From NCBI GenBank assembly GCA_005881575.1, contig VBCA01000036.1, positions 1,710-65,709 on the forward strand: DNA of 64,000 nucleotides, given 5' to 3'. The translations under genes were made by a program, and so were the position numbers. The DNA is from Betaproteobacteria bacterium (GTDB lineage Bacteria; Pseudomonadota; Gammaproteobacteria; Burkholderiales; SG8-39). Below are positions 18,162 through 23,198 of this stretch, one piece after another. The first letter of the stretch is position 1; every line of letters starts with the position of its first letter. A model generated the notes under the pieces. That model worked only from the letters and a program-made list of their open reading frames with translations, had not been told where the DNA came from and searched no databases.

Positions 18162-19118
18162 ATGGTTCGCGTAGCTGTCTTTGCGCTTTTCGCGCTCGCC
18201 GCTCTGCCCTGCGCGGCACAATACCCCGACCGGAACGTGACCTTTCTCGCGAACTTTCCCCCCGGGGGCCTCGTCGACATCGTCACGCGCGTCGTCGCCG
18301 ACGGAATGAAGCCAAAGTTTCCTCACGGCATCACCGTCGTGAACAAGCCGGGCGCCGGGGGCGCGGTGGGCGTCACGGATCTGATCCAGGCGAAGCCCGA
18401 CGGCTACACCATCCTGCTCACGCCGCAGTCGTCGCTCGTCATCGCGCCGCAGATGAACCCGAAGCTCGCCTACAAGACGCCGGACGAGTACGACCCGGTG
18501 ATCAACGTGGTCGCCTACTATCCGCTGTTGGCGGTGACCGCCGACGCGCCGTGGAAGTCCATCCAGGACTTCGTCGCCGACGCGAAAGCGAACCCGGGCA
18601 AGATGCGCGTCGGGACGCCGGGTGAGGGCACGGCGAGCCACCTCAACCTCGAGGAGTTCATCTTCCGGACAGGGACGAAGATGATTCCGGTGCCTTACGC
18701 CGGCTGGGCGCAATCCTCGCCCGCGCTCCTTGGCAACCACATCGAGGCGGTGGTGGCACAGCCGGGCGAGGTCAAGCCGCTCGTCGACGGCAAGCGGATG
18801 CGCGTGCTCGCTGTCTTCCAGGAAAAGCGCCACCCGGCCTTTCCCGACACACCGACATCGAAAGAGTCCGGCTGGGACGTGGCGAACGGCGTGTGGTACC
18901 TGATCATCGCGCCCAAGGGCACGCCCGCGCCGATCGTGAAGCAGATTCACGACGCCGCCAAGGCGGTCGTCGACGACCCGGCGTTCGCGAAGACCATGGA
19001 CGCGCGGGGAGTGGATGTGGACTACCGCGCGGGGGACAAGCTACGCACGGATCTGTGGAAGGAGTACAAGCTGGACACGGAGATATTGAAGAGGATCGGG
19101 CTGGTCAAGGTGCGGTGA
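18162..19118 (+). CDS. Bug/TctC-family tripartite tricarboxylate transporter substrate-binding protein
   Basis: Signal peptide, then QYPDRNVTFLANFPPGG, VVNKPGAGG, KPDGYT and PYAG motifs typical of the Bug family. Confidence 0.9.
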   Translation: MVRVAVFALFALAALPCAAQYPDRNVTFLANFPPGGLVDIVTRVVADGMKPKFPHGITVVNKPGAGGAVGVTDLIQAKPDGYTILLTPQSSLVIAPQMNPKLAYKTPDEYDPVINVVAYYPLLAVTADAPWKSIQDFVADAKANPGKMRVGTPGEGTASHLNLEEFIFRTGTKMIPVPYAGWAQSSPALLGNHIEAVVAQPGEVKPLVDGKRMRVLAVFQEKRHPAFPDTPTSKESGWDVANGVWYLIIAPKGTPAPIVKQIHDAAKAVVDDPAFAKTMDARGVDVDYRAGDKLRTDLWKEYKLDTEILKRIGLVKVR

Positions 19119-19132
19119 AGAGGAGATACGCG

Positions 19133-20098
19133 ATGAGGCTCATCGTTGCAGCCGGCGCGCTCGCGCTCGCGTGCACGCCGCCCGCGGCGTTGGCTCAAGG
19201 CTATCCCGCCAAGCCGATCAGGATCGTGATCCCTTTCGTCGCCGGCGGGTCGTCGGATATCGTCGGCCGCGCGATCGGCTCCAAGTTCCAGGAATTCCTT
19301 CGCCAGCCGGCCGTGGTCGAGAACCGGCCCGGCGCCAACGGCGCCATCGCCGCCGAGTTCGTCGCCAAGTCCGACGCGGACGGCTACACCATCCTGGTGG
19401 GCTCGATCGGCGTGTTCTCGATCAACGCGGCGCTGTTCAAGGACCTGCGCTATCAGCCGCTGCGTGACTTTGCGCCGATCACGCTCGCGGTGACCACGCC
19501 CAACGTGCTGATCGCGAAGCCGACGCTGCCTGCGGATTCGGCAAGCGAGCTGGTCGAGCTTGCGAAGAAAAATCCCGGGCGCCTCGCGTACTGCTCGAGC
19601 GGCAGCGGCTCGTCGGACCACCTCACTGGCGAGGTGTTTCGCCAGAGCGCCAATTTCGCCGCGATCCACGTGCCCTACAAGGGCGGCGCCGCGTGCCAGA
19701 CGGACATCATGGGCAACCAGGTCGATTTCTCTTTTCAGAACCTGGGCGCGGTGACCGGCTACATCAAGGCCGGCAGGATGAAGGCGCTCGTGGTGACTGC
19801 GAAGGCGCGCCACCCGCAGCTGCCCAACGTGCCTTCGGCCGCGGAGGCGGGATACCCGGACCTGGTCGTCACCTCCTGGCAGGCGGTCGCGGCGCCGGCG
19901 AAGACGCCGCGCGACGTCGTGGCGAAGCTGAATGACGCGACCGCGCGCGCGCTGCGCTCGCCCGAAATCCGCGAGCGCATGACGCAGATCGGCTTCGACG
20001 TTGTGGCGGGCACGCCGGAAGAATTCGGCGCTTTCATGAAGGCCGAGATCGAGCGCTGGACAGCGGTGGTGAATCGCGGCGGGATCAAGCCCGATTGA
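19133..20098 (+). CDS. Bug/TctC-family substrate-binding protein
   Basis: ATG 19133. Motifs are AQGYPAKPIRIVIPFVAGGSSD, ENRPGANG, DADGYT, VPYKGG and a C-terminal EIERW. Confidence 0.9.
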   Translation: MRLIVAAGALALACTPPAALAQGYPAKPIRIVIPFVAGGSSDIVGRAIGSKFQEFLRQPAVVENRPGANGAIAAEFVAKSDADGYTILVGSIGVFSINAALFKDLRYQPLRDFAPITLAVTTPNVLIAKPTLPADSASELVELAKKNPGRLAYCSSGSGSSDHLTGEVFRQSANFAAIHVPYKGGAACQTDIMGNQVDFSFQNLGAVTGYIKAGRMKALVVTAKARHPQLPNVPSAAEAGYPDLVVTSWQAVAAPAKTPRDVVAKLNDATARALRSPEIRERMTQIGFDVVAGTPEEFGAFMKAEIERWTAVVNRGGIKPD

Positions 20099-20100
20099 GT

Positions 20101-21057
20101 TCAGGTTTCAGCCTCGGCACTGCGGCGTCCTCCGATCGCCTTCCACGCGGACAGGCCGCCTGCGACGTAGCGCGCGTCGAAGCCTTCCTTGCGCAGCGCC
20201 GCGGTCACGCCGCAGCCGACGTGAAAACCGTAGACGCAGTACACCAGGACCGGCTCCGACTTCGAGAGTTCGCCTGACCACTCTCCCACGCGCTCCGGGT
20301 CGCGCCAGGTCGCGCCGGCCATCGTGCTCTTTTCCAGCTCGTGGTATTTCGCCGGCCGCACGTCGATCACCTGCAGCGTTTCGCCCCCGGCCATCCGGTC
20401 GCGGATTGCTTCCACCGAAACGCAGGGCAGCTCGGTCTGCTGCGCGGCCATCCCCGCGCCGCGCTCGCCTTCGCCGGTCGCGGAGAGGTAGCGCAGTTCG
20501 GCGCGCGCCCAGTCGACGTTGCGCATAGCCGCGTCGATGTACGCGGCGGTATTCGCCCCGAAGTCGATGTGGTAGGCGTGCTCGTACATGTCGAGGGCGA
20601 GGATGGGCGTTCCGGTCGCGAGGTTTTGCGTGTGATCGAGCGCGTATTGATTCACCAGGCGCCGCTCGCGCGGGAGGTACACGAGCAGCACCCAGCCCGA
20701 GCCCGAGAGCGCTCGCGCCATCGCGGTGAACTCGTCGCGCCAGCGGTCGGCGCTGCCGAAGCTCTCCTTCAGGGCGCTCGCCATGCGCTCGGTGGGCTTG
20801 CCGTCTCCGCCCAGCGATGCAAAATAAAGCTCATGCAGCGCCATGGAATTGAGCGCGACCAGCTCGTCGCGCTTCAGGCCCGCGATCTGGAATTCCGGAA
20901 CCGTGGAGAAGTCGAGCGCGCGGAGTTTTTCGGTGATGGCGTTCAGGCGCTGCACGGCGCCGCCGTAGTTGGTCTCGTAGTGGCTGACGATGAGCCGGTC
21001 GGACAGGCCGTTCAGGAGCCAGGGCCTGCAGCCGATGGGTGCGATCGCGTAAGGCAT
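20101..21057 (-). CDS. Fe/Mn-superoxide-dismutase-like domain fused to a C-terminal rhodanese domain
   Basis: A single 318-aa ORF. The SOD-like part has SHYETNYGGAVQRLN, ALHELYF, GSGWVLL and DMYEHAYHIDFG. The rhodanese part has LQVIDVRP...VLVYCVYGFHVG...YVAGGLSAW with an active-site-position Cys. Confidence 0.85.
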   Translation of the reverse strand: MPYAIAPIGCRPWLLNGLSDRLIVSHYETNYGGAVQRLNAITEKLRALDFSTVPEFQIAGLKRDELVALNSMALHELYFASLGGDGKPTERMASALKESFGSADRWRDEFTAMARALSGSGWVLLVYLPRERRLVNQYALDHTQNLATGTPILALDMYEHAYHIDFGANTAAYIDAAMRNVDWARAELRYLSATGEGERGAGMAAQQTELPCVSVEAIRDRMAGGETLQVIDVRPAKYHELEKSTMAGATWRDPERVGEWSGELSKSEPVLVYCVYGFHVGCGVTAALRKEGFDARYVAGGLSAWKAIGGRRSAEAET

Positions 21058-21085
21058 AAGGGACCTCCTGGTTCCGGAACCGCGG

Positions 21086-22042
21086 TCAATCGACCTTGGC
21101 CCCCGAAAGCTTGACGACTTTCGCCCACTTCTCGATCTCCGCGCGGATCAGCGCGTCGAACTGATCGGGCGTCGAGCCGATCGGCTCCATGCCCTGCTGC
21201 TTCATGCGCTCGGTGAGGTCGGAGGATTTCACGGCGCGCGCGATGTCGGCGCCGATGCGGTTCACGAGCTCGCGCGGCGTGGCGGCGGGGGCGACGATGC
21301 CGACGAGGGAGAGGGCGCTCACGCCGGGCACCGATTCGGAAACGACGGGATACTCGGGCGACTCGGGCGCGCGTGAAGGGGACAGCAGGGCGAGCACCTT
21401 GATCCTGCCGCTCTTGATCAGCGGCTGCACCGCGTAGAGCACGTCCATGAGTATTGGCACGCGCCCGGCCATGACGTCCTGCTGCGCCGGCGCGCCGCCC
21501 TTGTAGGGCACGTGCACGAGGTCGATGCCCGAGCTCGTCTTCAAAAGCTCGACCGAGAGGTGCATCGCGGTGCCGCTCCCCGGGGTCGCGTAGGCGAGCT
21601 TGCCGGGCTCTTTCTTCGCGAGCGCGATCAGCTCGGGGATGGAGTTCGCCGGGAACGCGGGGTTCGCGGCCATCACCAGGTGCTGCACCGAGACCTGCGT
21701 CACGCCGGCAAGGTCCTTCAGCGTGTCGTAGGGCAGGTCGCTGCGCAGGCTCGGGTTGATGACGTAGGCGGTGACCACCATGCCCAGGGTGTGGCCGTCG
21801 GGCGCGGACTTGGCGACGTAGTCGGTCCCGACCACCGTTCCCGCGCCGGGCTTGTTTTCCACCACCACCGGCTGGCCCCATACGTCCTGCATCTTCGCGG
21901 ACACGAGGCGCCCGATAATGTCGGTCGCGCCGCCGGGAGGAAACGGCACCATCAGCCGCACGACCTTGTTGGGATATTGCTGGGCGGCAGCCGCGAGCGG
22001 CAGCAGCGTCGCAAACGCAAGGGTTCGGATCAGACGGTGCAT
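21086..22042 (-). CDS. Bug/TctC-family substrate-binding protein
   Basis: Signal peptide, then QQYPNKVVRLMVPFPPGGATD, ENKPGAG, APDGHT, VPYKGG and EIEKW. Confidence 0.9.
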   Translation of the reverse strand: MHRLIRTLAFATLLPLAAAAQQYPNKVVRLMVPFPPGGATDIIGRLVSAKMQDVWGQPVVVENKPGAGTVVGTDYVAKSAPDGHTLGMVVTAYVINPSLRSDLPYDTLKDLAGVTQVSVQHLVMAANPAFPANSIPELIALAKKEPGKLAYATPGSGTAMHLSVELLKTSSGIDLVHVPYKGGAPAQQDVMAGRVPILMDVLYAVQPLIKSGRIKVLALLSPSRAPESPEYPVVSESVPGVSALSLVGIVAPAATPRELVNRIGADIARAVKSSDLTERMKQQGMEPIGSTPDQFDALIRAEIEKWAKVVKLSGAKVD

Positions 22043-22048
22043 GCCGCC

Positions 22049-23161
22049 TTAGCGCTCGTGCGCGGCCTCGCCGTCGCTCACTTTGAGGTCGGGCACCCCG
22101 CCTGTCGCGACCGGATCGTCGCGGTAGAGCTTCTTGAAGTCGAAGGTCGCGCGCCGGCCTTCCTGCTTCGGGATCCCGTTCTCCGCGAACAGCTTGAACT
22201 CGGGCGGCACGTCGCGAAAATCCTCGACGTCGAACCACAGCCGCACCAGGCGCCGCTGCCGCTCAGGCTCGGGGAAGTTCGTGAAGCGCGTTCGCGCGTG
22301 CATCACGGTATAGTTGTTGATGACGATCATGTCGCCGCGCTCGAGGAAGAACGCCAGGCGATTCTCGGGCGCCGCTGCGATCTCATCGAACAGATTCAGA
22401 GCCTCGAGGTCGCGCTCATCGAGCGGCACGCCGCGCTCGCGCTGGCCCGCTGCTATCCCGGCGCGCTGGTAGCGGCAGGAGAGTTGCCCGTTGCGGTTGG
22501 CGAACACCGGCGTACGGTAGGGCGTCGCCGCGTCCTCGCCCGGTCCTTCTTCGCCGAGGCGGTGGTAGTGATAGCCGCGGTAGAGCGCCTCGAGGAGGTG
22601 CGCTGCGCGCGCGCGTATCTCATCGTGCACGGTCACGCCGCTCACGATGATCGAGGCGCCGCCCGAGGCGGACTTGTGCCAGCAGGCGAGCGAGATCATC
22701 GCGGTGATGTCGGAGTGCGGCCGCAGCTCGAGATTGCTGCGGTACATGCGCGGGGTCGCGTCCTCGGCGGTGGCGTCGACCACCGAAGTGACGAGGTCGC
22801 CTTGGGCGTTCTGCGAGAGCGCGCGGCCGAAATGCGTCCCCACGCCCCAGGCGCAGGCGGTGAACTGCTCGAGCGACACGCCATCGAGGGGCAGGCCGCG
22901 CAACACGAGGAAACCCTTGCCCGAGCGCACCTCGGCGTAGCCGTGCTCGAGCTTCTTGCGCAGTCCGTCGAATCGAAAATCGGTCTTCGTCAGCGCGTGG
23001 ACGGGCGAGAGGCGGCCGCTCCGCTCGAGGGCCTCGACCGCCGCAAGCAGCTCACCGCGGTCTTCGACCGTCAGCTCGACCAGATAGTCGGCGGGGTTCT
23101 CGAAGCTCGAAGCCTTCCAGGCAAACGAAGAGGAGGCGTGCTCGTAGCTCATGAAAGCCAT
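22049..23161 (-). CDS. TauD/TfdA-family Fe(II)/2-oxoglutarate-dependent dioxygenase
   Basis: About 370 aa from ATG 23161. It has an HxD motif (LRPHSD), a distal His in NNYTVMHARTRF and a conserved Arg, the pattern of the taurine catabolism dioxygenase family. Confidence 0.85.
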   Translation of the reverse strand: MAFMSYEHASSSFAWKASSFENPADYLVELTVEDRGELLAAVEALERSGRLSPVHALTKTDFRFDGLRKKLEHGYAEVRSGKGFLVLRGLPLDGVSLEQFTACAWGVGTHFGRALSQNAQGDLVTSVVDATAEDATPRMYRSNLELRPHSDITAMISLACWHKSASGGASIIVSGVTVHDEIRARAAHLLEALYRGYHYHRLGEEGPGEDAATPYRTPVFANRNGQLSCRYQRAGIAAGQRERGVPLDERDLEALNLFDEIAAAPENRLAFFLERGDMIVINNYTVMHARTRFTNFPEPERQRRLVRLWFDVEDFRDVPPEFKLFAENGIPKQEGRRATFDFKKLYRDDPVATGGVPDLKVSDGEAAHER

Positions 23162-23172
23162 TGTAACGCGGC

Positions 23173-23198
23173 CTTGAGCGCCGCAAGCGGCGCTCAAG
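23173..23198. promoter_or_regulatory. Perfect 12-2-12 inverted repeat CTTGAGCGCCGC-AA-GCGGCGCTCAAG in a 56-bp divergent intergenic region; candidate operator
   Basis: Read directly from the sequence. It lies between the start codons at 23161(-) and 23218(+), so it cannot be a terminator. Confidence 0.45.

Follow-up and report, generated by a model that had tools for sequence, protein, structure and literature searches.

The window analyzed in this work, a stretch of 64,000 nucleotides (nt) corresponding to C50:1710-65709 of genome G000 (96.6% complete), contains on its minus strand a gene (20101-21057) which probably joins two accessory proteins of chromate-resistance (chr) determinants in a single polypeptide, namely the Fe-superoxide dismutase (SOD)-like protein ChrC and the single-cysteine rhodanese ChrE. 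This identity is considered jointly with the function proposed below, and both together are regarded as probable rather than assured. A preliminary description of the same DNA had reported a single uninterrupted open reading frame (ORF) coupling a SOD fold to a rhodanese domain, without stating its strand; the ORF has been confirmed here, whereas its identity as ChrC plus ChrE, as well as the replacement of a third active-site residue by His163, had been missed. ChrC and ChrE are already known as named proteins, and the fused form is present in databases under a generic SOD name. The fused and relocated ChrC-ChrE variant is undescribed in the open-access literature, where we found no paper on a ChrC-ChrE fusion, on the missing gateway residues, or pairing ChrC with Tyr34 (Y34). 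The features of the gene and its product are the following:

20101-21057, minus strand: probable ChrC-ChrE fusion ORF (P0001), 318 residues plus stop, ATG at 21057, with Sod_Fe_C and Rhodanese domains
21064-21069, minus strand: Shine-Dalgarno sequence AGGAGG, 6 nt 5' of the fusion-gene ATG
20476-21057, minus strand: ChrC-type Fe-SOD-like domain, residues 1-194 (Sod_Fe_C, 2e-24; 58% identity to pMOL28 ChrC)
20425-20475, minus strand: inter-domain linker, residues 195-211, without secondary structure (mean predicted local distance difference test, pLDDT, of the block 78)
20104-20424, minus strand: ChrE-type rhodanese domain, residues 212-318 (Pfam Rhodanese; 34% identity to pMOL28 ChrE)
20956-20982, minus strand: codons of H26...N30-Y31...A34 (SHYETNYGGA), with the first metal ligand and the replaced gateway residues
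20567-20592, minus strand: D156-M-Y-E-H160-A-Y-H163, with two metal ligands, the bridging Glu, and His163 replacing the Tyr166 equivalent
20212-20238, minus strand: rhodanese active-site loop C274-V-Y-G-F-H-V-G-C282, its Cys aligned to the ChrE Cys

Identity and Architecture of the Fused Protein

In a tblastn search against plasmids, chrC and its neighbor chrE on Cupriavidus metallidurans pMOL28 were matched colinearly by residues 1-307 (97% coverage, 47.5% identity). The order on this plasmid is chrB-chrA-chrC-chrE-chrF, chrC and chrE being separate genes situated 17 nt apart and annotated as "Fe-Mn family superoxide dismutase" and "rhodanese family chromate resistance protein ChrE," respectively. 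A fused gene of 302 residues is found within a chr cluster on plasmid pJS3066 of Pseudomonas sp. JS3066, in the order chrB-chrA-fusion-chrF. The SHYENNYGGA and EHAYH motifs are common to pMOL28 ChrC and all fusions, and the best NCBIfam model for residues 218-307 is ChrE (NF033833).

Both domains are recognized by Pfam, with residues 88-187 matching Sod_Fe_C (PF02777; 86 bits, cut-off 20.9) and residues 216-307 matching Rhodanese (PF00581; 30.9 bits, cut-off 22.2). No match to Sod_Fe_N (PF00081) was obtained in the fusion protein, nor genome-wide at E<=1; the N-terminal SOD hairpin is still predicted (helices 20-47 and 55-80) in an AlphaFold2 (AF2) model built with 60 homologues as input. This model reached a pLDDT of 95.1, with the SOD half above 90, and its predicted template modeling score (pTM) of 0.91 suggests a fixed arrangement of the SOD-like and rhodanese domains. 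The linker between them is clade-specific in sequence, according to the family alignment. Foldseek comparisons of the SOD half gave target-normalized template modeling scores of 0.83-0.90 to the tetrameric-class SODs 1p7g, 1ma1, 8bhx, 1coj and 1gn4, while no chain in the PDB was found to span both domains. For the rhodanese half, solved relatives are remote only (Alr3790, E ~5e-5, which does not have the Cys). The fusion protein is cytoplasmic.

Distribution and Conservation of the Fusion

The taxonomic spread of this architecture, whose survey had been proposed in the preliminary description, is wide: at least 583 relatives with the fusion were found among 600 candidate stretches from one-genome-per-species contigs, and at least 534 among 596 candidate stretches from metagenome contigs, including copies 92-99% identical from other samples. 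The 120 best matches in a search of 5.8 billion proteins were nearly all of ~317 residues and contained both domains, with a few truncated or longer calls. Among the matches listed, carriers are mostly soil Burkholderiales (Casimicrobiaceae, Usitatibacter), together with some Alphaproteobacteria and Methylomirabilota. Hundreds of genomes carry the fused form under the plain label "Fe-Mn family superoxide dismutase." In the close clade in which the gene is linked to a TauD-family neighbor (see below), the ratio of nonsynonymous to synonymous substitution rates (dN/dS) is 0.13-0.20 for both domains, and purifying selection thus acts on both halves of the fusion.

An origin of the ORF in a frameshift or an assembly error that merged two genes could invoke the split chrC and chrE of pMOL28, with only 17 nt between them. 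Nevertheless, the same architecture, equally free of interruption, is shared by hundreds of genomes and metagenome contigs of independent origin, some of the copies from other samples being 98-99% identical, and the conserved linker and low dN/dS also speak against an artefact; this explanation is therefore refuted, and its probability is practically nil.

Active Sites of Both Halves

Tyr34 and His30 are taken as diagnostic of Fe/Mn SODs, and current models of proton-coupled electron transfer are built around them; in human MnSOD, Tyr166 hydrogen-bonds His30 across the subunit interface. The corresponding residues of the fusion were mapped by HMMER alignments to solved SODs (best matches Aquifex 1coj, Pyrobaculum 1p7g and Sulfolobus 1wb8) and by a family alignment. 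The four metal ligands are retained as H26, H75, D156 and H160, invariant in 82/82 homologues; the preliminary description had listed the same four, with H75 numbered as H73. The bridging Glu, E159, is invariant in the family alignments, as are D156 and H160. On the contrary, the His30 column is occupied by Asn30 (N30 in 75 of 82 homologues, His in six) and the Tyr34 column by Ala34 (A34 in all 82). Both replacements had been proposed from a hand alignment, which proved correct since the HMMER alignments place Asn30, Ala34 and the ligands alike. The third replacement affects the second Tyr of the EHAYY motif, equivalent to Tyr166 of human MnSOD, which is His163 in the fusion and in 81 of the 82 homologues.

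A further substitution, Gln69 to Ser, had also been put forward. Its column is right, as Ser71 of the fusion sits in the Gln69 column of Escherichia coli FeSOD, but its interpretation as a meaningful loss has been rejected, because the SOD half belongs to the tetrameric archaeal/actinobacterial class, which does not use Gln69. SODs of this class take their outer-sphere partner from the C-terminal domain, in the form of a His such as His145 of Mycobacterium tuberculosis FeSOD (PDB entry 1gn4 is its H145E mutant). The candidate for this role in the fusion is the invariant H142 or the adjacent D/E141, the register being ambiguous because of a 1-residue indel, and the three HMMER alignments disagree.

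The altered second sphere characterizes the ChrC family as a whole rather than the window gene, since the same N30/A34/H163 pattern appears in 50%-identity representatives, unfused forms included. ChrC of pMOL28 (SHYENNYGGA...DMYEHSYH) has the same N30, A34 and H163, whereas a canonical FeSOD from a genus-mate presents H30, Y34, Q69 and DVWEHAYY.

Two further groups of relatives were observed. Three distant fused representatives (P0204, P0215 and P0180; 30-34% identity) have lost at least one metal ligand (e.g., Tyr26/Gln75 or Tyr160) and kept the rhodanese Cys; they are possibly metal-free pseudo-SOD fusions. Besides, a set of unfused ChrC-like proteins with the N30/A34 pattern (P0147, P0164, P0173, P0179, P0181, P0182, P0190, P0196, P0203, P0211, P0218, P0222, P0235, P0242 and P0257) bear N-terminal extensions of 30-56 residues with twin-arginine motifs (e.g., RRDFIK, RRRLL, SRRHFL), and Phe in place of Cys10 of the cytoplasmic forms. 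These extensions suggest a periplasmic branch of the ChrC family exported by the twin-arginine translocation (Tat) route.

With regard to the rhodanese half, the Cys that the preliminary description had placed in the catalytic loop was corroborated. The motif VLVYCVYGFHVG comprises residues 270-281, and in the AF2 model C274 follows a strand (270-273) and precedes a helix (279-290), the canonical placement for the active site of a rhodanese. C274 is present in 81/81 fused homologues and C282 in 80/81. Judging from the Cys position and the model score, the domain would be of the catalytically competent type.

Synteny and Relocation of the Gene

Synteny was assessed by tblastn of the window neighbors and of pMOL28 ChrA, ChrB and ChrF against 160 homologue loci, of which 147 at <=66% identity constituted the distant set; 58 loci with >=3 kb on both sides constituted the long-flank set. 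At 83 of the 147 distant loci chrA, chrB or chrF was present, within 300 nt of the fusion at 48 of them, and a chr gene was found at 40/58 long-flank distant loci. A TauD homologue, on the other hand, was detected by tblastn at none of the 147. The order TauD-like/Bug/fusion of the window was recovered in 13 metagenome contigs (L101-L113), 92-99% identical, which form one long-branch clade; the Bug gene upstream of the fusion is conserved in all of them, and the TauD homologue in ten, the other three contigs ending upstream. The co-occurrence with the TauD-like gene, which the preliminary description had proposed to look for, is thus kept only in this clade. In this lineage the fusion gene has left the chr cluster and now lies beside oxygenase genes. 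In one of these contigs (L104:1-3300, 98% identical) the TauD-like gene matches as two pieces of 218 and 149 residues, a split which a frameshift or an error in sequencing might explain.

The immediate upstream neighbors in the window are:

22049-23197, minus strand: FrbJ-like hydroxylase of the Fe(II)/2-oxoglutarate type, a member of the Pfam TauD family, with which the apparent operon begins
21086-22042, minus strand: Bug/TctC-family periplasmic binding protein (TctC, 1.3e-67), upstream of the fusion gene and co-oriented

The hydroxylase gene, whose likely true start is the ATG at 23161, is separated from the Bug gene by 6 nt, and the latter from the fusion gene by 28 nt. No promoter-like or minus-strand terminator-like signals were found within the three-gene block. 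In view of these gaps and of the lack of internal signals, co-transcription of the three genes is likely, and the fusion gene is the last of the apparent operon, as had been described.

Several other observations concern this neighborhood. Between the hydroxylase ATG (23161, minus) and a flavin adenine dinucleotide (FAD) monooxygenase gene (23218, plus), the short divergent region contains a perfect 26-bp palindrome (23173-23198; CTTGAGCGCCGC AA GCGGCGCTCAAG), probably an operator, which would control the fusion gene too. Three Bug/TctC genes surround the fusion: a tandem pair in 18162-20098 (plus) converges on it, and the third is that of 21086-22042 (minus). The converging stop codons are 3 nt apart (20098 and 20101), and the number of downstream Bug genes varies among the close relatives L105-L112. 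The block is situated on the border of a catabolic island rich in oxygenases, in which the FAD monooxygenase is accompanied by a luciferase-like monooxygenase and an NMT1/SsuA-like protein.

The tight layout of the block with its short gaps and no internal signals, the persistence of its gene order in the 92-99% identical orthologues wherever their flanks reach, the luciferase-like monooxygenase and NMT1/SsuA-like protein nearby, and the rhodanese Cys itself would all suit a metal-dependent redox enzyme other than a SOD, with a role in organosulfur or reactive-sulfur metabolism shared with the Bug protein and a TauD-family dioxygenase. Such a role had been deduced from the neighbors in the preliminary description, but it is very doubtful, because TauD is absent from the distant loci, the synteny is limited to a narrow clade (>=92% identity), and the "TauD" protein has its nearest relative in FrbJ. 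This protein keeps the HxD...H residues intact, and its nearest solved relative is the hydroxylase FrbJ (5eqn, 9e-39), followed by 7n7v, an uncharacterized "predicted hydroxylase." Among NCBIfam models, TmpA, TMLD and gamma-butyrobetaine dioxygenase come nearest to it, each scoring far under its cut-off, and its similarity to trimethylammonium-type hydroxylases is weak; as far as can be read from sequence, its relatives give no pointer to sulfonates, and the suggestion that it is a sulfonate-type dioxygenase did not hold. Furthermore, the altered SOD residues are inherited from ChrC, and therefore did not evolve for the window operon.

Other SOD and chr Genes in the Genome

Besides the fusion, no SOD homologue was found in genome G000, in which no other Sod_Fe_C, and no Sod_Fe_N, Cu/Zn-SOD (Sod_Cu) or desulfoferrodoxin was matched; nothing was found for Sod_Ni either, although this search gave no match in the control genomes as well. 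When the canonical FeSOD of a genus-mate was used as query, only the fusion gene was retrieved, at 28% identity. The genus is patchy in this respect: some genomes have a canonical FeSOD, G017, G018, G031 and G002 have the ChrC type only, and in five high-quality genomes (93-98% complete) there was no Sod_Fe_C match at all.

A fusion acting as the housekeeping SOD of the organism, with the rhodanese as a passenger, would account for its being the sole Sod_Fe_C match in the genome, for the lack of matches to Sod_Fe_N, Cu/Zn SOD or superoxide reductase, for the outcome of the genus-mate query, and for the four further genomes with the ChrC type only. However, we consider it unlikely. The five genomes without any Fe/Mn SOD indicate that the genus does not depend on one, the fusion gene is accessory and patchy within the genus, and, as the Ni-SOD search was silent in control genomes too, a Ni-SOD may be present. 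The rhodanese, for its part, is not a passenger, since C274 and C282 are invariant and this half is under purifying selection.

The genome has its own chr genes, which are dispersed: chrA on C23, chrB on C46 and a chrE-chrF fusion on C47. On C23 (G000:C23:3180-6168; L187), chrA stands alone, is 73% identical to pMOL28 ChrA and is followed by a 254-residue protein without a Pfam match and by a YncE-like beta-propeller (weak, under the Pfam cut-off), a neighborhood which echoes the genes downstream of chr on pMOL28. On C47 (G000:C47:12697-13494; L188:3697-4494, minus), a protein of 265 residues consists of a rhodanese plus ChrB_C, i.e., a ChrE-ChrF fusion; its ChrF part shares 67% identity with the ChrF of pMOL28, and its rhodanese half is ~42-45% identical to window residues 218-314. 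The gene adjoins a TauE/SafE-family exporter and lies opposite a major facilitator superfamily (MFS) transporter. Together with the ChrC-ChrE gene of the window, this means that the genome fuses a ChrE-type rhodanese to both reported chr "SODs," which supports a functional link among ChrC, ChrE and ChrF.

Proposed Function

Biochemical information is available for stand-alone relatives. ChrC of Ochrobactrum tritici (TnOtChr) is reported to be a tetramer containing ~1.4 Fe per enzyme, with a SOD activity on nitroblue tetrazolium (NBT) gels that is sensitive to H2O2, and the chrC mutant shows more reactive oxygen species under chromate (PMC4779226). In C. metallidurans, chrC deletion lowers the chromate minimum inhibitory concentration (MIC) only from 0.35 to 0.30 mM (PMC2751784). 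ChrE has been proposed, as a proposal only, to cleave chromium-glutathione complexes (bioRxiv 10.1101/2022.10.10.511631). The residues replaced in ChrC have been mutated in human MnSOD: engineered enzymes with Y34A, H30N and Y166F changes were slowed and not dead, and the Y34A, H30N and H30N/Y166F variants kept ~7-17% of k1 and lost the fast protonation step (PMC9208312).

We propose that the SOD-like domain of the fusion would be a slower superoxide scavenger with a wider, open access funnel, while the thiol or persulfide of the rhodanese would handle the thiol, persulfide or oxyanion chemistry of the same stress, which would be the source of the radicals. The fusion would hold both activities together at a 1:1 ratio. 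In the window lineage, the relocated gene would most plausibly serve as an antioxidant, either locally for the oxygenase operon or for the whole cell.

A different use of the same two sites could also be conceived, in which the Fe site with its open funnel (A34, N30, H163) would act jointly with the rhodanese Cys, and SOD activity would be a side reaction. The substrate would then be bulkier than superoxide, for instance an adduct of Cr(V)/Cr(VI) with a thiolate, a radical of the thiyl or persulfide kind, or some other oxyanion. Such an enzyme would give a reason for the family-wide joint replacement of three relay/gateway residues, which widens the access funnel, for the fusion of ChrE-type rhodaneses to either ChrC (window) or ChrF/ChrB_C (C47; SMc00911, PMC3462710), and for the marginal change in chromate MIC upon chrC loss (PMC2751784); the fixed inter-domain geometry that the pTM of 0.91 suggests would be consistent with it as well. 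We nevertheless find it very unlikely, as there is no experimental hint of such chemistry, and the Tat-exported unfused ChrC-like proteins share the altered residues and have no rhodanese, which means that an altered site of this kind can do without the Cys domain. That two-site chemistry on a bulkier radical or oxyanion might have been re-used by the window lineage outside chromate defense, beside the oxygenases, is likewise very unlikely.

Several points weigh against the identification as ChrC-ChrE and the function proposed for it. No chr gene adjoins the window fusion, as chrA, chrB and chrE-chrF are on other contigs, and hence the link to chromate in this organism is inherited by homology only. 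The ChrE model NF033833 scores 73.3 bits, below its equivalog cut-off of 120, and is thus the best-matching model, not an equivalog. Published ChrC assays are qualitative NBT gels (PMC4779226), and the activity data cover stand-alone ChrC relatives; moreover, A34 has been confirmed in pMOL28 ChrC, whereas the gel-assayed protein is that of O. tritici. Finally, near-invariant positions have changed in the window clade. Codon 29 (20971-20973) encodes Thr29 in the window and Asn in 78/83 homologues, the N29-to-T change being confined to the window's own sub-lineage; codon 302 (20152-20154) encodes Leu302 in the window and His in 77 homologues (GGHSAWKA), with L or F across the TauD-linked clade. 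These changes of N29 and H302 may reflect functional drift after relocation.

The significance of the ChrC-ChrE reading is broader than this gene. The ChrC family, which is very large and includes the fusions and the Tat-exported relatives, constitutes a natural triple-mutant series for testing proton-coupled electron transfer models, as Tyr34, His30 and the Tyr166 equivalent are replaced together while characterized members reportedly still score as SODs. The ChrC-ChrE and ChrE-ChrF fusions link three vaguely understood chr accessory proteins and make ChrE function testable. Besides, the label "Fe-Mn family superoxide dismutase" conceals the rhodanese half as well as the relation to chr of a protein which may be the sole SOD-type enzyme of this organism.

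Comparison With Known Systems

Canonical Fe/Mn SODs (E. coli SodB, human MnSOD, and the tetrameric FeSODs of archaea and M. tuberculosis) share with the fusion their fold, ligands and bridging Glu159, and the candidate outer-sphere His, H142, agrees with the tetrameric class; the fusion differs in not having Tyr34, His30 and the Tyr166 equivalent, in the missing Sod_Fe_N match, and in the extra C-terminal rhodanese. Closer is ChrC of pMOL28, with the same SHYE(N/T)NYGGA and EHAYH motifs, four ligands and tetramer-class SOD fold, although it is a stand-alone protein of ~197 residues encoded in a chrBACEF operon, whereas the window copy is rhodanese-fused and away from chr genes. In the same way, ChrE has an aligned Cys and an equal loop length (C-x-x-G-x-x-V), and the domain order, ChrC then ChrE, is that of the pMOL28 genes; ChrE is free-standing, and its loop reads CVHGHQVSQ, in contrast to CVYGFHVGC with the second invariant Cys, C282, in the window.

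Fusions are known from two kinds of chr partners. The protein SMc00911 of Sinorhizobium meliloti ("SodM-like"), a rhodanese plus ChrB_C/ChrF protein (PMC3462710), likewise presents a rhodanese fused to a chr accessory protein and has its 265-residue equivalent on C47 of this genome; its partner is ChrF/ChrB_C and not a SOD fold, and its rhodanese is N-terminal. The fused genes on pJS3066, in Acidovorax sp. T1 and on Rhizobium plasmids have the same architecture and the same residues 30/34/163 as the window gene, with ~48-51% full-length identity. The pJS3066 copy is situated between chrA and chrF, whereas that of the window is a member of a distinct long-branch clade and follows the hydroxylase and Bug genes.

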